Below, piece by piece: positions 20,604 through 59,588 of a stretch of 64,000 bases of DNA. Numbering within the stretch: position 1 is the stretch's first letter; each line of letters opens with the position of its first letter. Under the pieces are notes generated by a model that was given only the letters and a program-made list of their open reading frames with translations, had not been told where the DNA came from and did no database searches. The position numbers were made by a program, and so were the translations under genes. Source of the DNA: an uncultured Clostridia bacterium (lineage in GTDB: Bacteria > Bacillota > Clostridia > TANB77 > CAG-508); NCBI GenBank assembly GCA_948524275.1, contig CAOSLI010000001.1, forward strand, positions 329,198-393,197, written 5' to 3'.

Positions 20604-20728
20604 ATATAATCCAAGTAAAATAAATATGTATAAAAAATAAAGTTATTTAGAAAACAAACAGATCTAAATAACTTTATTCTTAATTTTTTCTTATTTCTTG
20701 TATAATAATCGAAAATATGGTATTATAG

Positions 20729-20790
20729 TTTCAACCAATAGGGACGTGCACTTTTGGTTGACCACAGGTACACGTCCCCATTGGTTGAAA
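20729..20790. repeat. GC-rich palindromic intergenic repeat, copy 1
   Basis: Inverted arms TTTCAACCAATAGGGACGTG / CACGTCCCCATTGGTTGAAA around TTTTGGTTGACCACAGGTACACG; shares GGGACG/CGTCCC and TTTTGGTYGACCA motifs with copies at 46598, 49546, 62153. Confidence 0.8.
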
Positions 20791-20804
20791 TCAGGAGGCG
20801 TAAA

Positions 20805-22035
20805 ATGAAGAGACCAGAATTATTAGCACCAGCAGGTTCTTTTGAAAAAGCAAAGGAAGCATTTTTATATGGAGCAGATGCAGTGTATTGCGGGACAGGT
20901 GAATTATCACTAAGAAGTAGAGCAGAAGTTGATAATGAGAGCTTAGCAAAAACAATTGAATATGCACATAGCAACCGGAAAAAAAGTATATACAACAATT
21001 AACATATATGCACAAGATAGCATGTATGATGATATAAAAAAACAAGTAGAAATGCTTGATAAATTAAAAGTTGATGCAGTAATTGTATCAGACGGCGGCA
21101 TTGTAGATATTATAAAGGAGATAGCACCTAATATTCCTATACATATTAGTACGCAAGCAAATACTTTAAGTGCACACACAGCAAGATTTTGGCAAAAGAA
21201 TGGTGCGTCAAGAGTAATTCTTTCTAGAGAAATGAATAAAGAGCAAATAAAAGACTTAATAAATAATATTCCACAAGAGTTAGAAACTGAAATTTTCATA
21301 CATGGAGCAATTTGTTGGGCTTATTCAGGAAGATGCTATTTAAGTGATTTTTTATCTTGCAGAAATGCGAACTTAGGAGATTGTGCACAAAGCTGTAGAT
21401 GGGCATATAACGTTTATATAGAAGAAAAAAATAATCCAGGAAATATTATGCCAGTTGAAGAAGATAGTAATGGAACATATATATTGTCATCAAAAGATTT
21501 ATGCCTAATTAAAAATATTCCAGATATCATAGAAATGGGCGTAACTAGCCTTAAAATAGAGGGAAGACTTAAATCAGAATATTATTTAGCAAGTGTTGTA
21601 AATGCATATAGAAATGCAATAGATGACTATATGAAATTACCCGAAAATTATGACTATACTAAATATTTGAAAGAATTAGAGAAAGTTAAAACTAGAGATA
21701 TAACGCAGTTCTTTTTTGAGGATAAGAATAATAAGGATTTCCAAGAATTCGAGGGAAAACAATATAACCCAGAGTATGAATATGGAGCACAAGTACTAGA
21801 ATATAGCGAAGATAAATCTATTGTAAAGATAGGAAATAAATTGAATATAGGCGACAAAATGGAAATAATAATTCCAAATAAAATAGAGCCAGTAGAATTT
21901 ATTATAGATAAGATGTGGGATACAGAGACGGATGAAGAAATAGAGACTATAAATCCGGGAAAAGTAGGACAGACTGTAAAGATGCACTTACCAATTAAAT
22001 GTGAAGAAGGCTGGATGATTAGAAGAAAAAAATAA
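20805..22035 (+). pseudogene. Peptidase U32 family protein (collagenase-like), disrupted by +1 frameshift
   Basis: N-terminus MKRPELLAPAGSFEKAKEAFLYGADAVYCG...EYAHSN (frame 0, ends TAA 21000-21002) continues in frame +1 from about 20977 as GKKVYTTINIYAQ...DAVIVSDGGIVD. The shift lies at AACCGGAAAAAAAGT (20973-20987, A7 run). RBS AGGAGG before ATG 20805. Confidence 0.7.
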
Positions 22036-23079: not shown

Positions 23080-25701
23080 ATGTCTTATGTATTTAACAAA
23101 ATTACAGTAAGACCACAATTACCAAAGAGAATAGCAAAATTAGCTGATGTATCAAATAATATGTGGTGGGCTTGGAATACCGAATTTTTAAGATTATTTA
23201 AACAAATGGATGGAGATTTGTGGGAAAAATGTGAAAAGAATCCTACTAAATTTCTAAAAAACATTTCACAAGATAAATTAGAAGAAGCTTGTAAAAATCA
23301 AGACTTCTTAAAGGAATACGATAAAATAGTAAAAGATTTTGAAGATTATATGAATGCAAAGTCTACTTGGTTTACTAAAAAATATCCTCAAAACCAAAAA
23401 GATTTAATTGTATATTTTTCAGCAGAATATGGTTTGGACGAAACAGTTGCAATTTATTCAGGAGGTCTTGGAATTTTATCAGGAGATCATTTAAAATCAG
23501 CAAGTGATATGGGTCTTCCGCTTGTAGGAATTGGACTTTTATATAGAAATGGATATTTCCATCAAGTAATAAATGGAAGTGGAATGCAAGAAGCAGTGTA
23601 CAAAGATATTGATATGGATGCAATGCCAATTAGTCCAGTAAGAGATGAAAAAGGAAATGACATAATCATCTCAATTAAATTACCTCTAAATACATTATAT
23701 TTAAAAGCTTGGAAGCTAAATGTTGGAAGAGTTAGTTTATATTTATTAGATTCTGATATAGATGAAAATATTGATGAATATAAAAATATAACCACAGCTC
23801 TTTATGGTGGCGACCAAGAAATGAGAATTAAGCAAGAGATAGTATTAGGCATGGGAGGAGTACTTTTATTAGATAAACTTGGGCTAAATCCTACTGTATA
23901 TCATATGAATGAAGGTCATTCTGCATTTTTAACTTTCCAACTAATAAGAAATATAATTAGAGATAAAGAAGTATCATTTGATATTGCAAGAGATATTGTA
24001 TCAAGTAAAACTGTATTTACAACACATACTCCTGTTCCAGCAGGAAACGATATTTTCCCAATTAGTTTAATGGAAAAATATTTCAATAAATTCTGGGATA
24101 AGTTTGGAATTACTAAAGAAGAATTTATGAGCTTAGGTATGAACCCTGCTAAAGAAAAAATAGATGAAGATGAAACAAAAGCAGAGCTAAAAGACGAGGA
24201 AGAAGGCTTTAACATGGGAATATTAGCTCTTAAAATTGCTGGTAAGAAAAATGGTGTAAGTAAATTACATGGTGCGGTATCAAGGGGATTATTTGCTGAG
24301 GTTTGGCCAAATATTCCAGAAAAAGAATCTCCTATTGGCTATGTAACCAATGGTGTACATACATGCACATGGGTTGCGCCAACTATGAAAGATTTATATA
24401 ATAAATATTTTAGACCTTATTGGCAAGATGATATACAAAATGATGATATATGGCAAGATATTTATAAAGTGCCAGATGAAGAACTTTGGAATGTACATCA
24501 GTCAAGAAAGGAAAAGCTATTAAAATTAGTAAAAGATTCTACAATTAGCAGACTTAGAAGATACAATTATTCATATGATGAGATAGACAAAATAGTAGGT
24601 GAATTGGATCCAAATGCTTTAACAATAGGATTTGCAAGAAGATTTGCAACATACAAAAGAGCAACACTTATATTTAGAGATTTAGAAAGAATAACAAAGA
24701 TATTTAATGAGAGAAATCAAAGAGTACAAATAATATTTGCAGGAAAAGCACATCCACAAGATAAAGAAGGACAAGGACTAATTAAATATATTCATGAGTT
24801 ATCATTAAAGCCACAATTTAAGGGTAAATTATTTATACTAGAAAATTATAATATAGGAATGTCAAGATACTTAGTATCAGGCGTTGATGTATGGTTAAAC
24901 AACCCAAGAAGACCATTAGAAGCATCAGGAACAAGTGGACAAAAGGCAGCTGTAAATGGTGTACTTAATTTCAGTGTGCTTGATGGTTGGTGGGCTGAGG
25001 GCTACAATCAAAAAAATGGTTGGGCAATTGGAACAGAAAAACAATACCAAAACTATGAAGACCAAGATGATGATGATGCTAAAAGTTTATATGATACATT
25101 AGAAAATAAGATAATTCCAATGTATTATAGAAAAAGCGAAAAAGGATATTCAACTGAATGGATAAAAATGATGAAAAATACTATTGCGTCAAATGCAGGT
25201 AGATTTAGTACAGCTAGAATGATTGCTGATTACATGGCACAGCTTTATATACCACTTTGTAATTTAAATAGAGATAATTACCAAGAGCTTGGAAATGTCA
25301 TAAAATTTAGTGAGTGGAAAAATGTAATTGAAAGAGAATGGCAAGATATTAAAATAGAACAAGCACCAGAAAACTATAACAATACAGCACTCGATGCTGG
25401 AAATACAATAAAGGTTAGTTGCTATGTTACACTTCCAAATGAACTAATCAATAACGATAATATAGATGTTCAAGTTTATTATGGAAGAATAGAAGGAAAT
25501 CAAATTGCAGGCGACTTACAAATTATATCAATGGAGAAAGATGTAGAAAAAGGCAAATCATCTAAACTAAAATGTAAATATACAGCAGATGTTGCATTAA
25601 AATCAGGTGGAGACTATGGTTACACATTTAGGGTTGTACCAAAATCTAAGATGATATTAGATTGGGCAAATCTTGATTTGATTAAGTGGATTGAGGAGTA
25701 A
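23080..25701 (+). CDS. glgP: Alpha-glucan phosphorylase (GlgP/maltodextrin phosphorylase family, GT35)
   Basis: About 873 aa; motifs DETVAIYSGGLGILSGDHLKSASD, NEGHSAF, and PLP-site-like region; start taken at ATG 23080 after AAAGGAGG. Confidence 0.85.
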   Translation: MSYVFNKITVRPQLPKRIAKLADVSNNMWWAWNTEFLRLFKQMDGDLWEKCEKNPTKFLKNISQDKLEEACKNQDFLKEYDKIVKDFEDYMNAKSTWFTKKYPQNQKDLIVYFSAEYGLDETVAIYSGGLGILSGDHLKSASDMGLPLVGIGLLYRNGYFHQVINGSGMQEAVYKDIDMDAMPISPVRDEKGNDIIISIKLPLNTLYLKAWKLNVGRVSLYLLDSDIDENIDEYKNITTALYGGDQEMRIKQEIVLGMGGVLLLDKLGLNPTVYHMNEGHSAFLTFQLIRNIIRDKEVSFDIARDIVSSKTVFTTHTPVPAGNDIFPISLMEKYFNKFWDKFGITKEEFMSLGMNPAKEKIDEDETKAELKDEEEGFNMGILALKIAGKKNGVSKLHGAVSRGLFAEVWPNIPEKESPIGYVTNGVHTCTWVAPTMKDLYNKYFRPYWQDDIQNDDIWQDIYKVPDEELWNVHQSRKEKLLKLVKDSTISRLRRYNYSYDEIDKIVGELDPNALTIGFARRFATYKRATLIFRDLERITKIFNERNQRVQIIFAGKAHPQDKEGQGLIKYIHELSLKPQFKGKLFILENYNIGMSRYLVSGVDVWLNNPRRPLEASGTSGQKAAVNGVLNFSVLDGWWAEGYNQKNGWAIGTEKQYQNYEDQDDDDAKSLYDTLENKIIPMYYRKSEKGYSTEWIKMMKNTIASNAGRFSTARMIADYMAQLYIPLCNLNRDNYQELGNVIKFSEWKNVIEREWQDIKIEQAPENYNNTALDAGNTIKVSCYVTLPNELINNDNIDVQVYYGRIEGNQIAGDLQIISMEKDVEKGKSSKLKCKYTADVALKSGGDYGYTFRVVPKSKMILDWANLDLIKWIEE

Positions 25702-25772
25702 AATATAGGACGGTTTAAAGGCTTTTTACCAAAAAAACGTCCTATATAGACATAAAATGCCAAGGAGAAATA

Positions 25773-28004
25773 ATGAATATAAACGACTTAAGAAAACTAT
25801 TAGAAAGTTCGAGTGATAGATTGTCAGTATTATTGGACATGAATACAATAATGCAATGCGAAAATCTTACTATAAAAGATTTTAAAGATATAGTAAGTGA
25901 ATTTTTAAGCGACGAGGAAAAATTTCAATTTTTAAAAGCTCCTGAGATGAAGAAATTAAATAGTACTACAAAAGCAAGTATAATCAGTCTTATATTAGAT
26001 GAAAATGTATGTTCACAAATAGTAAACGATGAAGAATTATTATCAAATTTGAGTAACAATCAAATTAAGGATATTGCGGAGAGAATAAATGATGATTTAA
26101 AAAAACAATTATTATATAATTCAGAATTCCTAAAAAAGTATGAATATGGAGATTACGATGTTAAATTACTGATATCAAGTTGTGATGAAAATACAATACA
26201 AGAAATACTTAAGGATAAAATACTTGTAACGGAGAAGCTAAAGTTTGAGACATTTCAAATTGCTACATTACTTCAAGAGATAGATAGTGATGAAGTAAAA
26301 TTAAATTTAGTAGAGTACTATGGAATAGAAGGAAGTTACGCAGTTGATGTTATAAATTCTTGCAGTACAGATACTAAATTAAAGATAATATTAGAAGATG
26401 AAAAATTTAGTACAGGGGATAAAAATAGAGTTATATTATCACTAGAACCTAAATCATTTTGCGAATTTATAATAAATAATAAAGATTTTTTAGAAAAAAT
26501 AAATACACATCCATATGAATTAACAAATAGATTGAGTTCTGAAGCACAAAAATATGTTGTACAACACATCGAAGAGCTTGGAGTTGATATAGATGAAAAA
26601 AGACGTATATTAGCAATTTTAAAAGATGAAGTGAAAAAAGATATTGATGTAAAGGACCTTCCAGAAGAATATAAAACAGCCTTAAGCATGGAAAGAGCAC
26701 AACCATACAGCCCATTTATTAAATTTGATTCAGATAGAAATTTAGAAGAGTATCGTGGATTAGATGATTTAATAAATATAAGACCAGAAGAACTAACTGT
26801 TGAGCAAAAGAAACGACTCTTGGAGTTATGTGATATCTGTCCTAATGCAAAGGTGTTTAATAGATTAGAAAAAGATAGTATTATAGGTTTTTTATCTACA
26901 GCAAAAGAATATAAAGAAGCGGAAAAATGGATAGACTCTGTAATTGATAGCTTAGATCCAGAATGGACTGACTTAGAAAAATTGGCTGCAATAGACAATG
27001 CTGTTGGTAAGAAGATTAGCTACGCTCCAGATTTTGACACAGAAGTATCAGATGGTGATGCTGTTAGAGCATTATGGAAGATAATTAGTACTGGGTATGG
27101 CGTATGCAATGGAATATCTAGAGTAGAAAAAGAAATTTTAGATAGAGTTGGAATAGAAAGCGAAGTTGTTTCTAGTGGCACACATGCATTTTTGAAAATC
27201 AAAGATATTGAAATTCCATCAGAGAATGGAGAAATGATAAGAGGAAACACAATAGTGGACCCAACTTGGAATTTGACAGAAAATAGATATGGAGCAAAAC
27301 CAAGCAACTTTTGTGTAAGCTATGAAGAAATTAGGAAAAATGACATAGATGATGAAGGTAAAGACCATGCTTGCCATTTAAATGATGAAAAATTGCAAGA
27401 TGCAACACTTAATTTAGATGAAGAAAACTTAAGAAGAACATATTATAGCATTGGGATGACAAATAGAGATGGGGAATTTCCAATAGTCTCTTTGATAAAT
27501 ATATCTGACAATATAGATGAGATATTTGCTAATAATCCTAAAGGAAATGTTTATGCACAATTACAATTTCTTGAAAAATATTATCCTGACTTTGCAGAAT
27601 GTCAGAACTCCACGATTGCAGTATTAAGCCAAATATTACTTAATCATCAAAATCTTAATTTTAACCAATGTGTTGTAAATAGGGTATATAATAGAGATGA
27701 TGAAGAAAAGAAACCAACATTTTATGCTTATATTGATTATCCTAATGAAATTGGTAAAAAGTTTTTTGTAGCAAATAAAGTAGAAGGAAGATTTGATGAA
27801 TATAGTCTAGAAGAATTTGAAAAGCAATTTGAATGTTACGAAATGGATTTAAAAAGAGGTAATGGAGTTAGACCATGGCAAAAAGAAAGTCGTGAAAATG
27901 AAAATATAGACTTATCTAGAAGTTCAGGAAAAGTTGTGGCAGCAGAGGAAAAAAGTATAAGCTCGAATGAGAATTCAGAACAATTAGATGAGGAGGGAAG
28001 ATAG
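25773..28004 (+). CDS. Large cytoplasmic protein with C-terminal transglutaminase-like cysteine protease domain
   Basis: 743 aa, no signal peptide; GYGVCNGISRV...SSGTHAFLKI...GNTIVDPTW consistent with a Cys-His-Asp transglutaminase core. Confidence 0.5.
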   Translation: MNINDLRKLLESSSDRLSVLLDMNTIMQCENLTIKDFKDIVSEFLSDEEKFQFLKAPEMKKLNSTTKASIISLILDENVCSQIVNDEELLSNLSNNQIKDIAERINDDLKKQLLYNSEFLKKYEYGDYDVKLLISSCDENTIQEILKDKILVTEKLKFETFQIATLLQEIDSDEVKLNLVEYYGIEGSYAVDVINSCSTDTKLKIILEDEKFSTGDKNRVILSLEPKSFCEFIINNKDFLEKINTHPYELTNRLSSEAQKYVVQHIEELGVDIDEKRRILAILKDEVKKDIDVKDLPEEYKTALSMERAQPYSPFIKFDSDRNLEEYRGLDDLINIRPEELTVEQKKRLLELCDICPNAKVFNRLEKDSIIGFLSTAKEYKEAEKWIDSVIDSLDPEWTDLEKLAAIDNAVGKKISYAPDFDTEVSDGDAVRALWKIISTGYGVCNGISRVEKEILDRVGIESEVVSSGTHAFLKIKDIEIPSENGEMIRGNTIVDPTWNLTENRYGAKPSNFCVSYEEIRKNDIDDEGKDHACHLNDEKLQDATLNLDEENLRRTYYSIGMTNRDGEFPIVSLINISDNIDEIFANNPKGNVYAQLQFLEKYYPDFAECQNSTIAVLSQILLNHQNLNFNQCVVNRVYNRDDEEKKPTFYAYIDYPNEIGKKFFVANKVEGRFDEYSLEEFEKQFECYEMDLKRGNGVRPWQKESRENENIDLSRSSGKVVAAEEKSISSNENSEQLDEEGR

Positions 28005-28006
28005 AA

Positions 28007-28243
28007 ATGAAAGTTATAGAAAAAATAACTATGTTTTTTAAAAATATCTTTAAAAAGCAAGCTAAAGTTAAAATGATAGAAGCTCCTCAAATTAAAATTG
28101 AAGAAGAAGGAAATGAAAAGATAAATAATGATTTTAGACAATCACTAAAGGTAAATGCGGAAGAAAAGAGAGAAAAACAGACAGTTAAAACTTTAATATG
28201 TGAAGGCGATGGACTTGGAATAAAGCCGAAAATGAGTTCTTAA
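28007..28243 (+). CDS. Hypothetical small protein (78 aa)
   Basis: ORF 3 nt after previous stop; K/E-rich, no recognised domain. Confidence 0.35.
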   Translation: MKVIEKITMFFKNIFKKQAKVKMIEAPQIKIEEEGNEKINNDFRQSLKVNAEEKREKQTVKTLICEGDGLGIKPKMSS

Positions 28244-28283
28244 TAATGTTACAGAATTGTAATATTAAATAAACGAAAAACCA

Positions 28284-28312
28284 TTGACCTTTTTAACATA
28301 AATATATATAAT
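28284..28312 (+). promoter_or_regulatory. Sigma-A-type promoter upstream of GLUG-repeat gene
   Basis: TTGACC - 17 nt - TATAAT; leader contains hairpin ATGCTATGG...CATAGCAT. Confidence 0.5.
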
Positions 28313-28370
28313 GCTATGGAAAATAATTACATAGCATTGGTAATGTGAAATAAAAACAAAGGAGTAAAAA

Positions 28371-31300
28371 ATGAGAAAAAATAGCAAAGAAAAAGGTATA
28401 ACGTTAATTGCGTTAGTTGTTACAATTATAATATTATTGATATTAGCTGCAATAGGCTTAAGAGGAATTGATACTTTAGTCTTCAAGGCAAAAGATGCAA
28501 CTAACAGATGGAAAGCTGCAGAAGAAGATGAAGTAAATGAGCTAGATAAAATAGCAAGTATAATTGATGGTAATCCAGAGGACCCAATGCCACAAACACC
28601 TGATATACCAGGGATACCAGATGTATCACCTGACATAGATGGATTGCCTGAAACAAAACCATATACATATTTTCCACCAGACTATATACCAATTTATACA
28701 GTTGAACAATATAAAGACATTGCATCTGAAAAGTCTAGTTATGTGATAAACGATTTATCAGGTACATATGTAGGAACATATACAATGGCGACAAATGCCA
28801 CATATGTATTTATGAATAATATAGACTTTGCAAGTGCAGGAAATGTACCAACAATAAAAAATTTTAACGGAACACTAGAGGGAAACGGATGTACAATAAG
28901 TAACATCTCAATAGATACTACTGGCTTAGAAAATGACTATACACGTATTGCTGGTGGAGACCCAAAATATCCAAGACCAGCAGGAATGTTTGAATGCGTA
29001 ACAGATGCAACAATAAGAAATTATGCAGTAGTAAATGCTAATATAAAATCTAAAGAGAGTGCAGCCGCAATCACTGCTCAATGTAATAATGCAACAATAA
29101 CAAATTGCTATGTAAAAGATTCTACTATAGATGGAATGAATTCTGCAGGAATTGTAGGTTATATAGGACCAAGAGGAGTAATAATAAGTAAATGTAAAAC
29201 CATTTCAACGAATATGCCTGGAACATCTGCAACAGCTGGAATTGCATCAACTTCATATGGAGACATAACGATAAATGATTGTAACGTAACAAAAAGTTCT
29301 ACAACTAATAGCATGAAACTAAATTCAGGAATTTTGTATTATACAGCAAATGATAAAACTACTACTATTAATAATTGTAATGTTCAAGATATTGAACTAA
29401 AAGATAATGATTCAGCTGGTATATTAGCTGTAGCAAATGGAAATGTCACAATTGATAAATGTAATACTAAAAAGTTATCTGGTTCAGGAGCATTATTATT
29501 AGGATATGTGGGAAATAATGGAGAAAGTGTATCTGTAACTAATTGTTCAAGCCAATCATCAGAGATGACAAAATCTGATGGAATGATACGTGAAATTTAC
29601 CTGAAAGGTAGTAGCTATGAAACTAGTGTAAATGTAGAAAATTGTTCAATGAAAGATATAAAGGCTACTGGAACCACATATAGTGCAAGTTTTGGATTGA
29701 TAGGCGAATGCCAAAATGTAAAAGATTTAAAAATATCAAAATGTTCTGCAGTGGGAATTGAGTTTACTAATGGAGATTCAGTTGCTGGAATATTGGGGCA
29801 TGTTTACTCAAACCTTAAAAATTTAGAAGTATCAGATTGTCATGTAGATAATATAAAAATTAATACTGCAAAAAATGCGGCAGGAATAGTAGCAGCATTT
29901 CAAGGAGAAAATATTACAGTTACAGAATGTAGCTCAAATAATCTTACAGTAGAATCGATACGTTCTATGACTGGTGGAATTGTTGCAATGTCAGAAAATA
30001 AACCACTTACTGTAAAGAATTGTACAGTTGCAAACTTTGATGCTAGCAAAGGTGAAGCTAGTGAATTACAAAAAGTGGGTGGTGCTATAGGCTTTTCGGG
30101 AACTGGAAACAATAATGCTGTAATAGAAAATGTAAAAGTATATAATAGTAAATTAGGCACTGGAGTTGGAATAGTTAATCAACTTGCTATTGGTGGAATA
30201 TGTGGTATGTCAACTGCAAAAGAAATAAATAATTGTTATGTAAAAGACGTTGAAATAAATGGAAAAAATTGTGAAGCAGTAGGTGGATTAATTGGAATTT
30301 CGCAGGTAGAAATGTCTATGACAAAATGTGCTGTTAATAATTGCAAAGTTGTATGTAACGAATCTGGAAAAGAATCAAAACAAGTGGGGGGAATTTTAGG
30401 ACAAGAATATACGAGAGCGACAATTAAAGATGCTATAGTAAATAACTTTAGCACTGAATTTGATACTACATCAGGTAAGTGTGAATTTATTGGTGGAGTA
30501 GTTGGTCTAGGAGGAGCATATGGCGGATCAATTACAATTGATAATGTAAATGTAAATCATTCAAAATTAAAAAGTGGTGGAAGAACTGGCGGTATGATAG
30601 GATATTCTCCTAATGCTAATGTTGCAAATAGTAAAGTTTATGAAACGTGGCTATATATGCATTGTAATGATAATAATATGAGAGCTGTTGGAGGAATTGT
30701 TGGATATGCAAGTACATCTAATATAGATAATGCAATTGTAGACCATGTAGGAATAGAAAGCCATGTACGTGTAGGTGGAATAGTAGGATTTGGAGATAAC
30801 ATAAATATAAGTAATAGTAAAGTTGATATGACAGGTATAAAAGTAACAGCTACAGCTAGATCTACATATGCAGGAGGAATTGCAGCATATGCACCATTTA
30901 ATTGTAAAATAGAATCTTGCAGTCTTTATGGAACAGAAATAAGATTAACAGGTGATGGACAAGAAGCATCTCTTGGAGGAATTGTAGGGCATGGAAATAA
31001 CTCATCAAATTCAAATTCACTTATTACAAAATGTAATTTAGATAGTTGTAAATTTGAAGGAACAAGTGGAGTCGGAGGAATAGCAGGAGTAGCAGTTCCA
31101 AACATAATAGATTGTCATACTAAAAACACTTACGTAGAAGGAACAATAGGTAATATTGGTGGTATATTAGGATATGGTGGTGCTACAAGCACAATAAATA
31201 GCACAACAGGAGAAGAAACAAAAAATCGTAAAGCTGTTAATATAACTAACTGTAGCATTGTAGATGGATTTTTAAGTGGACCAAACACTGGAAGTATAAT

Positions 31301-31388
31301 AGGAAAGAATTCACATATGGCTAGTACACCAGATGTTACAGAAGACGTTATAGAAGGATGTACATATCAATTTAAAGAAACTGAATAA
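28371..31388 (+). CDS. GLUG-motif repeat protein (1005 aa) with type IV pilin-like N-terminal segment
   Basis: N-terminus MRKNSKEKG-ITLIALVVTIIILLILAAIG resembles a class III (prepilin) signal but with Ala at +5 instead of Glu. There is a Pro-rich linker, then more than 15 GLUG-like repeats (AGIVGYIG, VGGAIGFSG, VGGLIGIS, VGGIVGYAS, LGGIVGHGN, VGGIAGVA ...). Confidence 0.7.
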   Translation: MRKNSKEKGITLIALVVTIIILLILAAIGLRGIDTLVFKAKDATNRWKAAEEDEVNELDKIASIIDGNPEDPMPQTPDIPGIPDVSPDIDGLPETKPYTYFPPDYIPIYTVEQYKDIASEKSSYVINDLSGTYVGTYTMATNATYVFMNNIDFASAGNVPTIKNFNGTLEGNGCTISNISIDTTGLENDYTRIAGGDPKYPRPAGMFECVTDATIRNYAVVNANIKSKESAAAITAQCNNATITNCYVKDSTIDGMNSAGIVGYIGPRGVIISKCKTISTNMPGTSATAGIASTSYGDITINDCNVTKSSTTNSMKLNSGILYYTANDKTTTINNCNVQDIELKDNDSAGILAVANGNVTIDKCNTKKLSGSGALLLGYVGNNGESVSVTNCSSQSSEMTKSDGMIREIYLKGSSYETSVNVENCSMKDIKATGTTYSASFGLIGECQNVKDLKISKCSAVGIEFTNGDSVAGILGHVYSNLKNLEVSDCHVDNIKINTAKNAAGIVAAFQGENITVTECSSNNLTVESIRSMTGGIVAMSENKPLTVKNCTVANFDASKGEASELQKVGGAIGFSGTGNNNAVIENVKVYNSKLGTGVGIVNQLAIGGICGMSTAKEINNCYVKDVEINGKNCEAVGGLIGISQVEMSMTKCAVNNCKVVCNESGKESKQVGGILGQEYTRATIKDAIVNNFSTEFDTTSGKCEFIGGVVGLGGAYGGSITIDNVNVNHSKLKSGGRTGGMIGYSPNANVANSKVYETWLYMHCNDNNMRAVGGIVGYASTSNIDNAIVDHVGIESHVRVGGIVGFGDNINISNSKVDMTGIKVTATARSTYAGGIAAYAPFNCKIESCSLYGTEIRLTGDGQEASLGGIVGHGNNSSNSNSLITKCNLDSCKFEGTSGVGGIAGVAVPNIIDCHTKNTYVEGTIGNIGGILGYGGATSTINSTTGEETKNRKAVNITNCSIVDGFLSGPNTGSIIGKNSHMASTPDVTEDVIEGCTYQFKETE

Positions 31389-31407
31389 GAAAATATAGGA
31401 TGTAAAA

Positions 31408-32982
31408 ATGAAGGAATATATAAAGCCAATAATTAATTTAACTCTAATATCTTCGCTTATATATATAATATGGAGAGTTATGATTTCCATCCCTTTAGAT
31501 AGGGGATGGAAATCCCTAATTTTCTCTATTATAATTGTAAGCTTAGAGATATTAGATTTTTTTGAATTCTGCATTTTCTATGTGAATTCATTAAAAGGTA
31601 CTAAAAGACATATAATAGACAAAAAAATAAAAGAATATCCTGATGTAGATGTAGTTGTCGTGACACTGAATGAAGACATCAAATTACTTGAAAGAACATT
31701 AAAGGCATGCAACGCTATTTCATATCCCAATAAAGAAAAATTACATATATATGTATCAGATGATGGAAAAAGAGAAGAAGTAAAGATATTAGCTGAAAGT
31801 CTAAATATAAACTATATAACTAGAGAAAATAACATAAATGCAAAGGCAGGAAATTATAACAATCTACTAAATACAATAAAATCACCATATATATTAACCC
31901 TAGATGCAGATATGGCACCTAAAGAAGGCATATTGCTAGATTTAATTCCGCATATAGCAAGGGATAAAGATGTAGGATTTGTTCAAACTCCTCAAGGATT
32001 TGAAAATGGTGATATATATCAATATAGATATGGAATAGATGGATATGTACCAAATGACCAATCATTTTTCTATCATACCTTACAACCATTAAAAAATAAC
32101 ATAAATGCTGTAGTATATTGCGGAACTAATGCAATAATACGAAGAGAAGCATTAGATAAAATAGGAGGATTTGCAGAAGGTGTATTAACTGAAGACATTG
32201 CAACAGGTATGTTAATTCAAAATGCAGGATATAAAGGAATATACATAGACAAGGTAGAAGCAGTAGGATATCAAGAAAACGATTTGAAAAGTTTTATTAA
32301 GCAAAGAACTAGATGGGCTAGAGGATGTATACAAACAAGTAAAAAGGTCAATCTATTAAAAATGAAAGGTCTAAATCTAAAGCAAAAATTAGAATACTTT
32401 TCTTGTTTTTCATATTGGCTGTTTGGAATAAAAAGACTAATATATCTAATAGCACCTTTATTATACAATGCATTTGATGTTATCTTAATAAATACTAGTA
32501 TGATAATATTTACAATAATGTGGCTGCCACAATACGTATTAAAAAGATTTGTTTTAGATAAGGTACTCAATAATGAAAGGTCATCTACTTGGAACAAAAT
32601 ATATGAAATAATATTAACACCAATTTTAAGTGTTCAAGTATTCCTAGAACTAATAGGTATTAGAAAGAAAAAATTTGAAGTATCAAGTAAGAAAAATAAG
32701 GGAAATAAAATTTCTAAAGAGCAAATTTTAATGACCTTGGGACATATATTCTTTATAATCATAAACCTCATTGCTTTAGGAATGAGTGTACTAAAGATGA
32801 ATAATACATTTTCAGATATATTCTCACTAATATGGAGTATGTCGAACTTAATGTATCTATTTATGGCTATTTTATTTGATTTATCAAACAAAAAGAACGA
32901 AGCAAAAGATTGCAGTGAAATATTTAAATATAATAAATGGACAATAATAAAAATGCTTTGGAAAGGGGATAAAAATAATTGA
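31408..32982 (+). CDS. Processive family-2 glycosyltransferase (cellulose synthase BcsA-like catalytic subunit; no PilZ domain seen)
   Basis: N-terminal TM helices; conserved D (YVSDDG), DxD (LTLDADM), TED (LTEDIATG), QxxRW (QRTRWARG); C-terminal TM bundle. Confidence 0.75.
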   Translation: MKEYIKPIINLTLISSLIYIIWRVMISIPLDRGWKSLIFSIIIVSLEILDFFEFCIFYVNSLKGTKRHIIDKKIKEYPDVDVVVVTLNEDIKLLERTLKACNAISYPNKEKLHIYVSDDGKREEVKILAESLNINYITRENNINAKAGNYNNLLNTIKSPYILTLDADMAPKEGILLDLIPHIARDKDVGFVQTPQGFENGDIYQYRYGIDGYVPNDQSFFYHTLQPLKNNINAVVYCGTNAIIRREALDKIGGFAEGVLTEDIATGMLIQNAGYKGIYIDKVEAVGYQENDLKSFIKQRTRWARGCIQTSKKVNLLKMKGLNLKQKLEYFSCFSYWLFGIKRLIYLIAPLLYNAFDVILINTSMIIFTIMWLPQYVLKRFVLDKVLNNERSSTWNKIYEIILTPILSVQVFLELIGIRKKKFEVSSKKNKGNKISKEQILMTLGHIFFIIINLIALGMSVLKMNNTFSDIFSLIWSMSNLMYLFMAILFDLSNKKNEAKDCSEIFKYNKWTIIKMLWKGDKNN

Positions 32983-33959
32983 AAAAATTATTAGTTTTGT
33001 TTTTACTCATCATTGCCATAACAGTATCGATTCCTATATTTTATAGAATAAACAACAATAGAGTTATATATAATGGATTTTTGAAAGTCGATGGTACTAA
33101 ATTAAAAAATAGATTTGGTCAGGAAATTCAGTTAAAAGGCGTAAGCTCACATGGTGTGCAATGGGAGTACACAGACATAATTACAAAGGAAAATCTAAAA
33201 TATCTAAGAGATGAATGGGATATGAATGTTTTTAGAATTGCTATGTATACTGAAGAAGGTGGATATATAAATGACAAGGAGACCAATAAACAAAAAGTAA
33301 TTAGCATAATAGACATCTGTATAGATTTAGATATATATGTTGTAGTAGATTGGCATAATCTTAAAGATGGAGATCCTAACAAAAATAAAGAGGCAGCAAG
33401 GGAATTTTTTGAATTTATATCAGAAAAATATAAAAATGTACCGAATGTTATTTATGAGATTTGTAATGAACCTAATGGAGTATTATGGACAGAACATATA
33501 AAGCCATATGCAAATGAAATTATAGAAATCATAAGAAAAAATACACCAAAGTCACTTATTATAGTGGGCACACCAGATTATTCTAAAGATATTGTATCTG
33601 TAGTGAATTCTAAATTAGAATATAATAATATTTTATATGCATTTCATTTTTATGCAAGTACACACACTGAAATATATAGACAATTTATAAAATACGCGTT
33701 AGAAAATGATGTACCAGTATTTGTTTCAGAATGGGGAACAGGAAATTATACAGGAGATGGTGGATTTGACTATGTAAATTCAGAAGAATGGATGAAATTT
33801 TTAGATGAAAATAATATAAGTTGGATAAATTGGTCATTTTCTTATAAAGATGAAAGCACAGCAATTGTAAAACCTGACATAAAAGATAATATTAATATCA
33901 TTGAAGAAAACTTAACTGACTCAGGAAAATACATTAAAAATAAAATGAAAAAACCTTGA
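32979..33959 (+). CDS. Glycoside hydrolase family 5 endoglucanase (cellulase-like), membrane/secreted
   Basis: N-terminal signal/TM; GVSSHGVQWE, IVDWHNL, catalytic NEP (ICNEPNG) and nucleophile SEWG motifs typical of GH5; 4-nt overlap with GT2. Confidence 0.75.
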   Translation: MKKLLVLFLLIIAITVSIPIFYRINNNRVIYNGFLKVDGTKLKNRFGQEIQLKGVSSHGVQWEYTDIITKENLKYLRDEWDMNVFRIAMYTEEGGYINDKETNKQKVISIIDICIDLDIYVVVDWHNLKDGDPNKNKEAAREFFEFISEKYKNVPNVIYEICNEPNGVLWTEHIKPYANEIIEIIRKNTPKSLIIVGTPDYSKDIVSVVNSKLEYNNILYAFHFYASTHTEIYRQFIKYALENDVPVFVSEWGTGNYTGDGGFDYVNSEEWMKFLDENNISWINWSFSYKDESTAIVKPDIKDNINIIEENLTDSGKYIKNKMKKP

Positions 33960-34075
33960 TTTTTACTTTGATATATGATAATATATATTGCGTAACCTTT
34001 TACTTAGTTTTAGACTAATCACACCACTAAGACCAAGTTTTAGGAATAATATCAAGCAGGAGGTGTAATAATACT

Positions 34076-34342
34076 ATGATGACAAAGGAAAGAAAAGAAG
34101 AAATCATCAAAACTTATAGAAGAGATGATAAGGACACTGGTTCACCAGAAGTTCAAGTAGCTCTTTTGACAGAAAGAATTAATGAGCTTACAGAACATTT
34201 AAAATCTAACCCAAATGATAATCACTCAAGAAGAGGATTATACAAAATGGTTGGTAGCAGAAGAAACTTACTTAATTACTTAGCTAAAAAAGATGTTCAA
34301 AGATACAGAGACATAGTAGCAAAATTAGGATTAAGAAAATAA
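34076..34342 (+). CDS. rpsO: 30S ribosomal protein S15
   Basis: 88 aa; [23 protein letters not shown]...[20 protein letters not shown]. Confidence 0.95.
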
Positions 34343-34352
34343 TTTTTTATTT

Positions 34353-34408
34353 AAAGCAACGCCTGTATTACATCGTAGTGCAGTCGTTGCTTTAAGTTTC
34401 TTTTAAGA
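34353..34408 (+). terminator. Terminator/attenuator hairpin downstream of rpsO
   Basis: AAAGCAACG ... CGTTGCTTT 9-bp stem with long loop, followed by T-rich tract. Confidence 0.5.
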
Positions 34409-34546
34409 AAAATGTAATTAATTAAGGATTAGTAGCTTGTATGATGTAAATACAAAGATATTTATATCATAGAGGTTACAGTCTATAATTGATTACAGAA
34501 AATCAATTTTAGAATCGCATGAGTTTATTGCGATGAAGGAGGAAAT

Positions 34547-36661
34547 ATGTTTAAAATTTATGAAACAGAATTAGCAGGAAGAAAACTTACAATAGAGACT
34601 GGAAAGTTTGCAAAACAAGCAAATGGAAGTGTTACAGTAAGATATGGTGATACAGTTGTAATGACAAATGTTACAGCTTCAAAAGAACCTAAAGATGGTG
34701 TTGACTTTTTTCCACTATCAGTAGATTATGAAGAAAAATTATACTCTGTAGGAAAGATACCAGGAAGTTTTAATAGAAGAGAAGGTAAGCCAGCAGATAA
34801 AGCAATTTTAGTATCAAGAGCAATTGATAGACCAATAAGACCATTATTTCCACATGATTTTAGAAATGATGTATGTGTTGTAAATACTGTTCTTTCAGTT
34901 GATGAAGATTGTAGCCCAGAAGTGTGTGCAAATATTGGTACATCAGCAGCACTTTCAATATCAGATATTCCTTGGGGTGGACCAACCTCTGCTATGCAAG
35001 TAGGATATATAGATAACAAAATAGTATTAAATCCTAGTGAAGAAGAAAGCAAAAAAAGTAGATTACATTTAACAGTTGCTGGAACTGAGGAAAAAATCAC
35101 AATGATTGAAGCAGGAGCTGACGAAATACCAAATGATATAATGCTTAATGCCATTAAAGAAGCACATGTAGAAATTAAGAAAATATGTAAATTTATATCA
35201 GAGATGAAGTCTGAAATAGGCAAGCCTAAGTTTGAATATAAATCTTTCTCAGTTGATCCAGATTTCTATAAAGCAGTTACAGAAAAATTTGAATCAGCTA
35301 TGAGTGATGCTGTTAGAAATACAGATAAAGAAATTAGAAATGATAATGTAGATAAAGTTGCAGAAGAAATTAAAAATCTAGCAATTGAGATGTATGGAGA
35401 AGATGCAGAAGAGGAGCACGCATTTGATATAGCCACAGCAGTCCATGACTTAGAAAAGCATTGCGTTAGAAATATGATTTTAACTGAAAGAAAACGTCCA
35501 GATGGAAGAGGAATAGATGAAATAAGACCACTTTATGGAGAAGTTGGACTTCTTCCAAGAGTACATGGTAGTGCACTTTTCTCAAGAGGACAAACTCAAG
35601 TTCTATCAATAGCAACACTTGGAACTAAAGCAGACGAGCAATTATTAGATGGATTAGACAGTGAGACATCAAAGAGATATATGCATCAATATAATTTCCC
35701 ATCATACAGTGTTGGAGAGGCAAGACCTTCAAGAGGACCTGGAAGAAGAGAAGTAGGACATGGAGCATTAGCCGAAAGAGCATTAGTTCCAGTAATTCCT
35801 ACTGAAGAAGAATTTCCTTATACAATAAGAGTTGTATCAGAAGTTCTTGAATCAAACGGTTCAACATCACAAGCAAGTATTTGTGGAAGCACATTAGCAT
35901 TAATGGATGCAGGTGTTCCTATAAAGAAACCAGTAGCAGGAATTTCAACAGGACTTATTACAAATCCAGATGACCCAGAAAACTATATTGTTCTTACTGA
36001 TATTCAAGATATAGAAGATTTCTTTGGAGACATGGACTTTAAAGTTGGTGGAACTAAAGACGGAATAACAGCTATCCAAGTAGATATAAAGATTGATGGA
36101 CTAACATATGATATAATTGAACAAGCTTTTGAGAGAACTGCAAAAGCAAGAGCATATATTATTGATGACATTATTTTAAAAGCTATTCCAGCTCCAAGAG
36201 AAGAATTGTCTAAGTATGCACCAAAGATAATTAACATAGTTATTCCACAAGAGAAGATTAAAGATGTAATTGGTTCAGGTGGAAAAACTATTAATAAAAT
36301 AATTGATGAAACTGGAGCGAAACTTGATATAGAAGAAGATGGACGAGTATTCATATATGCACAAGATATTGAAAATGCCAAGAAAGCATTAAAAATGGTA
36401 GAAGATATAACAAGAGACATAGAAGTCGGAAGTATTGTAGGTGGTGTTGTTACTAAAATAGCAGCATTTGGAGCATTTGTTAAAATAGGTATGAATAAAG
36501 AAGGACTTCTTCATATATCTAAAATTTCAAGCAAAAGAGTAGAAAAAGTAGAAGATGTATTAAGCGTAGGAGACGAAGTAACAGTAAAAGTTATAGATAT
36601 AGACGGTCAAGGAAAAATAGCACTTAGCATGAAAGATTTAGAAGTAGGAGAAAATAAATAA
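34547..36661 (+). CDS. pnp: Polyribonucleotide nucleotidyltransferase (PNPase)
   Basis: 704 aa; two RNase PH domains, KH and S1 domains (GSIVGGVVTKIAAFGAFVKIG). Confidence 0.95.
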   Translation: MFKIYETELAGRKLTIETGKFAKQANGSVTVRYGDTVVMTNVTASKEPKDGVDFFPLSVDYEEKLYSVGKIPGSFNRREGKPADKAILVSRAIDRPIRPLFPHDFRNDVCVVNTVLSVDEDCSPEVCANIGTSAALSISDIPWGGPTSAMQVGYIDNKIVLNPSEEESKKSRLHLTVAGTEEKITMIEAGADEIPNDIMLNAIKEAHVEIKKICKFISEMKSEIGKPKFEYKSFSVDPDFYKAVTEKFESAMSDAVRNTDKEIRNDNVDKVAEEIKNLAIEMYGEDAEEEHAFDIATAVHDLEKHCVRNMILTERKRPDGRGIDEIRPLYGEVGLLPRVHGSALFSRGQTQVLSIATLGTKADEQLLDGLDSETSKRYMHQYNFPSYSVGEARPSRGPGRREVGHGALAERALVPVIPTEEEFPYTIRVVSEVLESNGSTSQASICGSTLALMDAGVPIKKPVAGISTGLITNPDDPENYIVLTDIQDIEDFFGDMDFKVGGTKDGITAIQVDIKIDGLTYDIIEQAFERTAKARAYIIDDIILKAIPAPREELSKYAPKIINIVIPQEKIKDVIGSGGKTINKIIDETGAKLDIEEDGRVFIYAQDIENAKKALKMVEDITRDIEVGSIVGGVVTKIAAFGAFVKIGMNKEGLLHISKISSKRVEKVEDVLSVGDEVTVKVIDIDGQGKIALSMKDLEVGENK

Positions 36662-36662
36662 A

Positions 36663-37940
36663 ATGCAGTATTTATATATGGTGCAACAAGCATTAGTATG
36701 GATAATAACAATATATTGGATATATCAATTAATCATTAGTTTATGTTCATTTATTACATTAAAGGATAAGCCAAAAGTTACAGATAAAAAACACAAATTC
36801 GTGGCTATTGTGCCAGCTCACAATGAAGAAAATGTTGTGGGCAATCTTATAGCGAGCTTAAAAAACCAAGATTATCCAAAAGAATTGTATGATATCTATG
36901 TTATTGCAGATAATTGCACAGATGATACTGAGAAAGTTGCAAAAAATGCAGGAGCAAAGGTATTTAAAAGAATTGAAGAAGACAAAGCAAAGCAGACAAA
37001 AGGCTTTGCTCTTCAACTATTTTTAAATAAATTATTATCAAATCCCAAGATGGATTATGATGCTTTTTGTGTATTTGATGCGGATAATATAGTAGATGAA
37101 CATTTTATTTCTGCAATGAATGAACACCTTTGCCAAGGTGAGGATGTAGTTCAAGGATATAGGGATATAAAGAATCCAAGTGATAGTTGGATTTCAGCTG
37201 GATATGCGATTTTTTATTGGACAATGAATAGATTTTATCATCTAGCAAGATATAATGCAGGTTTATCACCACTTATAAATGGTACTGGTTTTATGGTAAA
37301 GTTAGATGCAATAAGAGATACTGGATGGGACACAAATACGTTAACTGAAGATATAGAATTTTCATTAAAACGAATCATTCAAGGACATAAATTAGGTTGG
37401 GCTACTGATGCAATTTGCTATGATGAGCAACCAATAAAATTTAAGCCATCGTGGTCTCAAAGATCTAGATGGACAATAGGACATCTTCAATGTATGCAAG
37501 AATACACAGCTGATTTAGCTAAATCTGCTGTCAAAAATAAGACACTTATGAATTTTGATGGACTGTTATATATTGTAGGAACAGCACCAATGTTTGTCAT
37601 AACAATTCTTCTATTAGTATCAAATGCAGTAATTTATCTTGGAAAGGAAATGACAACATCTGCATTTGTTATTAACATATTAAGATATATTATACCAACA
37701 TTTTTGCTTCCAATATTTACAGCAGTTATGATAATGATAATTGACAAAAAGCCTATAAAAAAGATGTGGAAAGGACTTTTAATGTATCCAGCTTTCTTAG
37801 GTTCATGGCTTTTAATTAACTTTAAGTGTTTATTTAAAAGAGATACAACATGGGAAAAAATTGAGCATAATCGTGATGTAAAGATTGATGAGGTACATGA
37901 AAAAGTAAAAACGAAGTCTAAAGAAAAAGCTATGAAATAA
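36663..37940 (+). CDS. Processive family-2 glycosyltransferase (IcaA/PgaC/cellulose-synthase-like), integral membrane
   Basis: Start ATG 2 nt after pnp stop; motifs DNCTDDT, FDADN, TEDIEFS (TED), QRSRWTIG (QxxRW); N-terminal and C-terminal TM helices. Confidence 0.7.
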   Translation: MQYLYMVQQALVWIITIYWIYQLIISLCSFITLKDKPKVTDKKHKFVAIVPAHNEENVVGNLIASLKNQDYPKELYDIYVIADNCTDDTEKVAKNAGAKVFKRIEEDKAKQTKGFALQLFLNKLLSNPKMDYDAFCVFDADNIVDEHFISAMNEHLCQGEDVVQGYRDIKNPSDSWISAGYAIFYWTMNRFYHLARYNAGLSPLINGTGFMVKLDAIRDTGWDTNTLTEDIEFSLKRIIQGHKLGWATDAICYDEQPIKFKPSWSQRSRWTIGHLQCMQEYTADLAKSAVKNKTLMNFDGLLYIVGTAPMFVITILLLVSNAVIYLGKEMTTSAFVINILRYIIPTFLLPIFTAVMIMIIDKKPIKKMWKGLLMYPAFLGSWLLINFKCLFKRDTTWEKIEHNRDVKIDEVHEKVKTKSKEKAMK

Positions 37941-37997
37941 AATATCTAAAATTACCTTAAACTTAAATAAAAGGTAGGATGTAAAAGGAGATTATTA

Positions 37998-59577: not shown

Positions 59578-59588
59578 GAGGTAGAAAG

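Follow-up and report, generated by a model that had tools for sequence, protein, structure and literature searches.

A compact gene triad of gut Clostridia that may make and organise a cell-surface beta-glucan

Introduction

Described cellulose-type systems follow a general scheme in which a core synthase (BcsA, CcsA or CslA) is combined with a non-homologous partner bearing a single transmembrane segment (BcsB, CcsB or GlxA) and a glucanase (BcsZ, CcsZ or CslZ) (10.1101/2023.11.20.567928). Here we analyse a locus of an uncultured Clostridia bacterium in which a beta-helix surface protein with GLUG-type turns (the GLUG protein), a BcsA-like glycosyltransferase of family 2 (GT2) and an endoglucanase of glycoside hydrolase family 5 (GH5) are encoded by consecutive genes. 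The locus lies in a stretch of 64,000 nucleotides (nt) that was analysed as a whole and is called the window below (assembly GCA_948524275.1, contig CAOSLI010000001.1, positions 329,198 to 393,197 of the forward strand).

The ccsZABHI locus of Clostridia encodes a BcsA-like synthase with a signal-anchored GH5 glucanase; this glucanase, CcsZ (structure 6UJE), belongs to subfamily GH5_25, and CcsB is a CBM11-like protein held between two transmembrane helices (PMC7710045). GlxA has an N-terminal transmembrane segment and a large outside domain, and a neighbouring glucanase helps the polymer to reach the surface (10.1101/2023.11.20.567928). RiGT2 (Cgs) of Romboutsia is BcsA-like and makes a mixed-linkage glucan, no sequence motif predicts linkage among such enzymes, and its activity is lost when its PilZ domain is removed (PMC10374906). 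From a different field, modular pilins, onto which bulky domains have been grafted, are widespread, with 264 architectures among more than 1,200 proteins. The class III signal that marks pilins is defined by a short hydrophilic leader whose last residue is Gly or Ala and by a stretch of about 21 hydrophobic residues after it, with which an alpha-1 helix of about 50 residues begins (PMC8179133).

Little is known of cellulose-type exopolysaccharide systems in Gram-positive bacteria: Ccs exists only as a model, and the reconstitution of CslA/GlxA is recent. We read the region from 28.3 to 34.0 kb of the window as an operon of three genes for the synthesis and organisation of a beta-glucan at the cell surface, and put the probability of this reading at roughly 0.55.

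Results

A three-gene unit

The unit and its signals are as follows (window positions).

28371..31388, + strand: surface protein of 1005 amino acids (aa) with a GLUG-type beta-helix and a prepilin-type N-terminus (AlphaFold2 model, motif counts)
31408..32982, + strand: predicted PilZ-less, BcsA-like processive GT2 beta-glucan synthase of 524 aa (Pfam, NCBIfam, alignment to PDB sequences, motifs)
32979..33959, + strand: endoglucanase of family GH5 (326 aa), its N-terminal signal anchor at residues 4-22 (Pfam, PDB relatives, motifs)
28284..28312, + strand: promoter-like site TTGACC-17-TATAAT, 11/12 consensus match, in the 127-nt gap 5' of the GLUG gene
28371..28460, + strand: prepilin-type (class III) signal, MRKNSKEKG (residues 1-9) and then 21 hydrophobic residues ITLIALVVTIIILLILAAIGL, with Ala at +5
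31472..31524, + strand: strong RNA hairpin with 14 perfect base pairs, or 23 when extended, and a T-rich tract behind it, within the first 120 nt of the GT2 open reading frame (ORF)

The genes for the GLUG protein, a short GT2 and a GH5 occur together in nine of the nine independent contexts examined (the window, L004, L006, L008/9, L014 and L041-L044), all of them in uncultured Clostridia of animal and human guts. They stand in the order GLUG-GT2-GH5 in the window, L004 and L042, as GT2-GH5-GLUG in L008/9, L014 and L044, and divergently, with GH5 and GT2 pointing away from GLUG, in L006, L041 and L043. The genes flanking the triad are unrelated from context to context, and the beta-helix proteins of the nine contexts are 27-36% identical. 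Such constant company at so low an identity is strong evidence for selected linkage, and the GLUG/GT2/GH5 module that the original prediction had proposed is thereby upheld. Since the trio recurs in nine genome neighbourhoods, it is probably an undescribed route to a cell surface layer of sugar plus protein.

The same comparison bears on the idea that the genes are not functionally coupled and that the GLUG protein is one of many variable adhesins in a surface-protein island beside GT2 and GH5. Paralogues bearing the same leader do stand in arrays, four of them in L045 at the very chromosomal site that the triad holds in the window, three in L004 and four in L008, and GT2-GH5 pairs adjoin several kinds of surface protein. 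However, adjacency persists in all nine contexts across three gene orders, 27-36% identity and different flanks, and in the window only 19 nt part the GLUG gene from GT2. Additionally, the beta-helix family is tiny (164 among 1.84 billion), so that chance co-location every time is unlikely. We regard an absence of coupling as highly improbable.

The layout of the window is that of a compact transcription unit with three members. The four ORFs of the original prediction lie exactly where it placed them (25773-28004, 28371-31388, 31408-32982 and 32979-33959), yet its exopolysaccharide block of four genes does not hold, as the first of these, labelled transglutaminase-like, is confined to same-species contigs; the real unit at this locus is three genes, not four. 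The promoter-like site has the top score within 25500-34600, a consensus match alone in a region whose total of such matches is not above chance. A ribosome-binding site graded strong (AAAGGAG), read directly, lies 5 nt 5' of the GLUG gene ATG at 28371. The GLUG gene stop is followed by a 19-nt gap to the GT2 start, and the TTG start of GH5, preceded by the purine tract GGAAAGGGGA, overlaps the GT2 stop codon by 4 nt (TTGA), an overlap that had been predicted and can be read in the sequence.

The hairpin at the 5' end of the GT2 gene has a folding free energy of -28.7 kcal/mol (z -5.2), lies more than 5 standard deviations below the gene-wide mean and is flagged as terminator-like. It may act as an attenuator or RNA-stability element that sets the ratio of GLUG to GT2 expression. 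A conserved regulatory role was ruled out, as the hairpin is absent from nine other GT2 genes and is species-specific. No Rfam family reached its gathering score between 25000 and 35000, the cyclic di-GMP (c-di-GMP) riboswitch included, and we therefore rejected a riboswitch as the substitute for PilZ in c-di-GMP control.

A BcsA-like synthase from a PilZ-less clade

The GT2 protein resembles cellulose synthases throughout its catalytic and membrane parts. Pfam returned GT2 families and a Cellulose_synt stretch, and phmmer against PDB sequences aligned residues 9-495 with residues 203-693 of E. coli BcsA (7lby, E 2.4e-68) and residues 17-430 with residues 78-510 of R. sphaeroides BcsA (4hg6), so that the best relatives of solved structure are genuine cellulose synthases. 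The motifs DDG118, DAD166, TED261 and QRTRW299 align with those of BcsA and are invariant in three GT2s of the module, and the gating loop FEVSSK423 departs from FxVTxK by Ser for Thr. Two N-terminal and four C-terminal transmembrane segments are predicted, and the BcsA alignment spans the C-terminal transmembrane helices.

Searches of the protein for PilZ gave no Pfam match, no RxxxR and no DxSxxG, and the chain ends about 30 residues past its last transmembrane segment. The description of the GT2 as having all motifs of a processive beta-glucan synthase and no recognisable PilZ domain is thus accurate, as is the statement that BcsB is missing: library scans of the neighbouring proteins gave no BcsB family match in any of them. 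Without PilZ, we take the enzyme as not gated by c-di-GMP. NCBIfam TIGR03030 (CelA) matches over profile positions 60-563 of 714 (E 7.6e-102), its 341.6 bits falling under the curated cutoff of 699.1 because the PilZ portion is absent; PRK11498 gives 276.5 bits against a cutoff of 992.

It is also evident that the missing domain is a property of a clade. The best 120 relatives are 337-631 aa long, all lack PilZ, carry only the source name 'glycosyltransferase' and are 44-55% identical to the window protein, besides an identical one and one match at 93%; the identical sequence occurs in the metagenome-assembled genome (MAG) GCA_948845805.1 and in gut-type metagenome assemblies. In a quick neighbour-joining tree the short GT2s form one clade and the long Bacillota forms with both PilZ motifs a separate one. 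A naturally PilZ-less clade is mechanistically interesting because RiGT2 needs its PilZ for activity; a literature search on PilZ-less synthases returned nothing relevant.

The product may be something other than cellulose, namely a (1,3;1,4)-beta-glucan, another beta-glucan or a wall-associated glycan, with GH5 as the matching trimmer and the same architecture throughout. RiGT2 is a BcsA-like Gram-positive enzyme that makes a mixed-linkage glucan, no motif predicts linkage, the short GT2 clade stands apart from the PilZ-bearing Bacillota forms, and the score lies below the CelA cutoff (341.6 against 699.1 bits). Against this, the relatives of solved structure are genuine cellulose synthases and the best relatives of the GH5 were deposited as endoglucanases or cellulases. 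We consider a non-cellulose product possible, if somewhat on the unlikely side.

A Cel5A-like hydrolase in place of BcsZ

The GH5 matches Pfam Cellulase (PF00150) with E 4.3e-60 and 204 bits against a cutoff of 23.5, and carries both catalytic Glu motifs (NEP163 and VSEWG249). Its closest PDB relatives, at E ~1e-92, are of the Bacillus Cel5A/EglS type and are deposited as endoglucanases or cellulases; we take Cel5A and EglS to be endo-beta-1,4-glucanases, and relatives of this type fall in subfamily GH5_2. CcsZ (6UJE) is matched at E 4.4e-13 and has the same signal-anchor topology. As the protein is far closer to the Cel5A/EglS type than to 6UJE, we view it as a functional analogue of CcsZ/BcsZ that was independently recruited, not as an orthologue. 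The original prediction had seen a synthase/hydrolase pair with a different hydrolase family; the GH5 is there, but the exchange of GH8 for GH5 has already been published for ccsZABHI (PMC7710045).

One extra C, at the same codon each time (...AAT C GGN...), splits the GH5 genes of three triad loci.

L009:6255-6480 (and L008): split GH5 gene, extra C
L006:2600-2860, - strand: split GH5 gene, extra C, same codon
L041:6990-7260, - strand: split GH5 gene, extra C, same codon

On one side of the split is an ORF for the transmembrane anchor, called at 44-48 codons in L006 and L041, and on the other a catalytic domain that is open throughout its ~290 codons. At this point the zero-frame codon is CGG, which is used 0 times in ~4,400-5,000 codons in L006 and L008 and in 2 of 4,592 codons in L041; in the window, ORFs of at least 250 aa hold no CGG in 15,031 codons and almost no CGC or CGA. 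The pattern resembles programmed +1 frameshifting by the ribosome at a codon that is hungry or unassigned, not decay, and CGG may be unassigned in this lineage. The window's own GH5 gene is in frame and unsplit.

A long, probably non-catalytic beta-helix

The AlphaFold2 model of the GLUG protein, built from an input alignment of 18 sequences, has a mean predicted local distance difference test score (pLDDT) of 84.5 and a predicted template-modelling (TM) score of 0.81. It consists of a helix at residues 9-65, modelled with low confidence, a disordered linker rich in Pro (residues 66-99, 9 Pro) and an uninterrupted right-handed beta-helix that spans some 900 residues, from around residue 100 up to residue 1005. 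The protein contains 15 GG[IVLM]xG turns of the GLUG type and 30 Cys. Pfam matches to Beta_helix (sub-threshold) and Peptidase_M26_N are weak. The GLUG beta-solenoid of the original prediction holds at the level of the family, with a confident beta-helix model and precomputed Pfam Glug matches in seven homologues.

The beta-helix family is small. A word-indexed search found 19 relatives of the protein, and when 1.84 billion representatives were searched exhaustively by phmmer with the beta-helix part as query, 164 relatives reached E<=1e-3 and 23 reached E<=1e-30. In the family alignment of 18 members only Cys, Gly and Phe positions are invariant, apart from the initiator Met. No column of Asp, Glu, His, Lys or Arg is invariant or nearly so across these 18, and no conserved catalytic set was found, which argues for a scaffold or binding role over catalysis. 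Most full-length members carry the same leader, and one (P0285) has a plain transmembrane anchor.

Foldseek against the PDB returned weak, generic right-handed beta-helices, including PL6 alginate lyases, a fucoidan lyase, phage tailspikes, the AlgE6 epimerase, the PfbA adhesin, the N-domain of an IgA1 protease (7uvl) and BACOVA_03286 (3n6z), the last being the match of highest probability (1.0; target-normalised TM-score 0.44). The lyases, the epimerase and the tailspike depolymerases on this list could be taken to mean that the beta-helix is itself a polymer-modifying or polymer-cutting enzyme (a lyase, hydrolase or epimerase), like AlgG/AlgE or tailspike depolymerases. However, these matches are all weak (query-normalised TM-score <=0.20, E >=6e-4) and reflect only a shared solenoid fold, the 18 members have no near-invariant charged or His column, and the operon already has a dedicated hydrolase in GH5, so we hold an enzymatic beta-helix to be very unlikely.

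A prepilin-type leader shared with a large surface-protein family

The GLUG protein begins as the original prediction had described it, with a pilin-like segment KG/ITLIAL (the slash marking the predicted site of cleavage) and Ala for Glu at +5, and apart from Glu5 it fits the published definition of a class III signal (PMC8179133). Ala at +5 is invariant in 11 aligned leaders. A profile of these 11 matches at least 7,859 protein clusters (7,859 of the 8,000 scored candidates; the search was saturated), and a few leader-sharing proteins have a precomputed PF07963 match. A literature search for the leader string returned nothing relevant, and a regular-expression scan of the window found no second pilin-like leader.

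One of the profile matches is informative about what the leader is. P0128 is a putative pilin of 71 aa (KG/ITLVAL...) whose gene belongs to a complete cluster for a type IV pilus; the genome also has sporulation (SpoVA) genes.

L010:5108-14250: complete type IV pilus cluster, in the order PilM/N-like, two small genes, P0128, PilD (A24_N_bact), two putative pilins, PilB, PilT, PilC

The hydrophobic tracts of the GLUG protein and P0128 are alike at 17 of 21 positions. The two further putative pilins of the cluster read KG/FTGID and KG/ITLVS, so that all three lack Glu5 and have Ala, Asp or Ser instead, and the putative major pilin, at only 71 aa, has no globular domain. This likeness to a putative pilin encoded beside PilD marks the N-terminus as a leader of the prepilin type and not as an ordinary Sec signal. 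Thus, the same leader type within a pilus operon makes it plausible that the GLUG protein is processed by PilD.

The leader is not special to the GLUG protein; it is the standard N-terminal module of a very large surface-protein family. Arrays of paralogous surface proteins share the leader KGITLIALV.TII.LLILAG and have C-terminal LRR_5, DUF285, Big_2 or unknown domains.

L045:2871-9539: leader-bearing array, four paralogues in a row
L004:7567-8913 and 19925-21226: leader-bearing arrays, three paralogues
L008:19003-21270: leader-bearing array, four paralogues
L044:7134-7409: leader-bearing array

The L045 array lies 5' of Fic-rpsO-pnp, the site held by the triad in the window, and within L045 a 68-aa leader ORF is followed in frame, with zero gap, by an ORF of 443 aa. 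The occurrence of the leader in arrays of other surface proteins argues for a lineage-wide prepilin-type export and anchor module, not a peculiarity of the GLUG protein. Among the short leader-only proteins (57-104 aa), only P0128 is convincing as a stand-alone pilin; three others stand ahead of other ORFs for surface proteins, and their genes may have been split.

With such a leader, the GLUG protein could itself be a genuine minor pilin of the modular type, cut by PilD after Gly9 and displayed on the tip or side of a filament by a machine encoded elsewhere, its link to GT2 and GH5 being co-regulation or a pilus that binds self-made glucan, not a synthase complex. The putative 71-aa pilin between PilMN-like genes and PilD/PilB/PilT/PilC has the same leader type and its neighbours likewise lack Glu5, modular pilins with bulky domains are widespread (PMC8179133), and only an alpha-1-like helix precedes the linker, as in the short stand-alone leader proteins. 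Set against this, no pilus machinery is found in the window, as had been predicted for its surroundings, or in any triad locus examined, and phmmer with the L010 pilus proteins gave matches confined to L010 and L011 among the loci examined. Additionally, several of the 'short pilins' are N-terminal pieces ahead of other surface-protein ORFs, the missing Glu5 argues against normal filament packing, and the family member P0285 makes do with a plain transmembrane anchor. We consider a minor pilin of this kind unlikely.

The GT2-GH5 pair beyond the triad

A search with the GT2 alignment against one genome per species showed that a short GT2 directly followed by GH5 is found more widely than the triad, in Clostridia MAGs, a Bacilli MAG, a Lachnospira MAG and five Saccharibacteria MAGs.

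L021-L023, L038 and L039: Candidatus Saccharibacteria MAGs with a PilZ-less GT2 plus GH5, 40-42% identity to the window GT2

In the neighbour-joining tree the Saccharibacteria GT2s nest within the Bacillota (Clostridia/Bacilli) clade, which suggests that the pair moved horizontally into Saccharibacteria. In L038 and L039 an LRR_5 protein of ~1,800 aa lies directly upstream of the pair on the same strand; the Saccharibacteria LRR_5 proteins have Sec signals, and their C-termini (PKTxD/NPKTG, a transmembrane segment and an Arg/Lys-rich tail) look like sortase sorting signals. A literature search on a Saccharibacteria cellulose synthase with GH5 returned nothing relevant.

Thus, the constant unit is GT2 plus GH5, and its companion is a large solenoid surface protein of varying type. 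This variation weakens an obligatory, BcsB-like role as catalytic subunit and favours a glucan-associated scaffold or adhesin. The suggestion that the GLUG protein is a BcsB-like or adhesin component therefore survives in part: a BcsB-like role is plausible by analogy with BcsB, CcsB and GlxA, but is weakened by the LRR partners at related pairs.

Neighbouring genes

The window has a G+C content of ~29% and strong purine and GC skews. The genes on both flanks are housekeeping genes, upstream those for a sporulation-type sigma factor and an alpha-glucan phosphorylase and downstream rpsO and pnp. Two further genes precede the unit.

25773..28004, + strand: cytoplasmic protein of 743 aa; N-terminal region of alpha-helical repeats, and a possible core of the transglutaminase type
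28007..28243, + strand: 78-aa ORF, called as a gene in L001-L003

Both are present only in the same-species contigs L001-L003. The label 'transglutaminase-like' could not be confirmed for the longer one, as Transglut_core (PF01841) scores below threshold (E 0.026, 15.3 bits against 23). A Cys445/His471/Asp496 pattern of plausible spacing is visible; a single-sequence AlphaFold2 model has pLDDT below 50 for residues 302-743, which cover the putative core, and a search for PDB relatives found none. With its confinement to same-species contigs, sub-threshold Pfam match and lack of a PDB relative, we rejected this gene as a member of the module.

Two other systems lie farther downstream. At 36663-39530, directly after pnp, a second membrane GT2 of 425 aa, with EpsU as its best NCBIfam match and a likeness to PgaC, stands beside a 510-aa protein whose counterpart in L001/L002 has a weak PMT_2 annotation; the arrangement is kept in same-species contigs and is a further, putative envelope glycan system. 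At 58186-60677, ~24 kb downstream of the GT2, genes for an MBOAT protein of 463 aa (E 2.6e-33) and a DHHW protein of 362 aa (E 2.3e-18) lie side by side, a pair absent from the other triad loci. It is of the CcsH/CcsI or PatA/PatB O-acetyltransferase type and could acetylate the triad glucan or another wall polymer.

Discussion

The reading that we prefer is that of an operon for making and organising a beta-glucan at the cell surface. By homology to BcsA, the GT2 would polymerise UDP-glucose (uridine diphosphate glucose) to a beta-glucan and export it through its own membrane channel; the product would be cellulose-type, possibly mixed-linkage. With no PilZ there would be no c-di-GMP gating, and control is presumably transcriptional. 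Outside the membrane, the anchored GH5 would trim or release chains, a task ascribed to BcsZ, CcsZ and CslZ in their systems. The extracytoplasmic companion would be the 1005-aa protein, kept in the membrane beside the synthase by its prepilin-type helix, with the Pro-rich linker and the ~900-residue non-catalytic beta-helix projecting outward. To judge by its fold class, the beta-helix most likely serves as a scaffold or adhesin that binds the glucan and retains or organises it. In addition, a prepilin peptidase may cleave the protein, which would then be added to a type IV filament.

Several observations weigh against this account. For the polymer, linkage cannot be read from sequence among Gram-positive BcsA-like enzymes, RiGT2 being a maker of mixed-linkage glucan, and the same enzyme is inactive once its PilZ is removed. 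For the companion protein, the match to Pfam Glug is sub-threshold (E 0.013, 16.3 bits against 20.5), as is that to N_methyl (PF07963; E 0.0019, 18.1 bits against 21.2), and the N-terminal helix is poorly modelled, with 10-residue block means of 36-62 across residues 1-70. The Glu at +5 that is normally needed for pilin assembly is replaced by Ala, and phmmer with the PilD, PilB, PilT, PilC and PilMN proteins of L010 found no PilD or pilus gene within the window. Additionally, related GT2-GH5 loci in Lachnospira, other Clostridia and Saccharibacteria have no GLUG partner, and giant BspA-type LRR_5 proteins of 1,800-2,600 aa stand beside them; a partner of the GLUG type is thus not universally required for synthesis.

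A bolder extension would make the GLUG protein a modular pilin without Glu5 that is processed by PilD and physically joins a system of type IV filaments to a glucan synthase independent of c-di-GMP. Its helix would dock onto the six-transmembrane synthase as the missing subunit, or a filament would display the glucan-binding rod; more broadly, the leader would be a general export and display signal of a very large surface-protein family of gut Clostridia, comparable to archaeal class III signals on non-pilins. We offer this as speculation and think it quite doubtful.

Under the preferred reading of a glucan-making operon, the cassette would be a fourth, very compact solution to building such polymers, with a synthase that has lost its c-di-GMP switch, a GH5 that always follows it and, in one lineage, a tie to a rod-like surface protein whose anchor is of the pilus type. 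It may matter for aggregation in the gut, for attachment to host or partner cells and for biofilm matrix. As a small, clonable system of three genes, it offers a handle both on the role of the 'second partner' of cellulose synthases and on the processing and display of Glu5-less prepilin-type leaders.

Comparison with described systems

With the Bcs systems of Gram-negative bacteria the cassette shares its logic, in which a synthase is joined by an endoglucanase and by an extracytoplasmic partner that crosses the membrane once, and its GT2 matches BcsA over the catalytic domain, the C-terminal transmembrane helices and the gating loop. It differs in having no PilZ, BcsB or BcsC, in a hydrolase of GH5 and not GH8, and in a partner that is an N-terminally anchored beta-helix, whereas BcsB has a C-terminal transmembrane anchor. 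Two N-terminal transmembrane segments are predicted in the cassette GT2; BcsA has four.

The Ccs systems likewise unite a Gram-positive BcsA-like synthase with a signal-anchored GH5. However, CcsA has a PilZ domain and the cassette GT2 does not, CcsB is CBM11-like with two transmembrane helices whereas the cassette partner has one N-terminal transmembrane segment and a beta-helix, and CcsZ is of GH5_25, to which the cassette hydrolase is related at E 4.4e-13 as against ~1e-92 for the Cel5A/EglS type. The MBOAT (CcsH) and DHHW (CcsI) genes that belong to the ccs locus have counterparts in the window some 24 kb off, outside the operon.

The CslA-GlxA-CslZ system of Streptomyces (10.1101/2023.11.20.567928; PMC9040799) also combines a Gram-positive GT2, a non-homologous partner with an N-terminal transmembrane segment and a glucanase. 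GlxA, in contrast, is a radical copper oxidase and not a beta-helix, CslA has a partial PilZ (RxxxR) and responds to c-di-GMP, and CslZ and LpmP belong to enzyme families other than that of the cassette GH5. RiGT2 is a BcsA-like GT2 of Clostridia, as is the cassette enzyme, and shows that such enzymes need neither make cellulose nor respond to c-di-GMP; its PilZ is present and required, whereas the cassette clade has none.

For the partner, the modular type IV pilins (S. sanguinis PilB/PilC; PMC8179133) offer the same succession of class III signal, alpha-1 helix, linker and bulky outside module. The GLUG protein, unlike these, lacks Glu5 and the globular pilin beta-sheet domain after alpha-1, and its gene sits in a polysaccharide synthase operon, not a pilus operon. 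Proteins of the GLUG/M26-N type (7uvl, 3n6z) share the right-handed beta-helix with GGxxG turns; the cassette beta-helix is much longer (~900 residues), has no protease domain, bears a pilin-type anchor and is linked specifically to GT2 and GH5. Thus, the cassette fits the scheme of synthase, partner and glucanase, and differs from each known case by its lack of PilZ, its Cel5A-like GH5, its beta-helix partner and its prepilin-type anchor.

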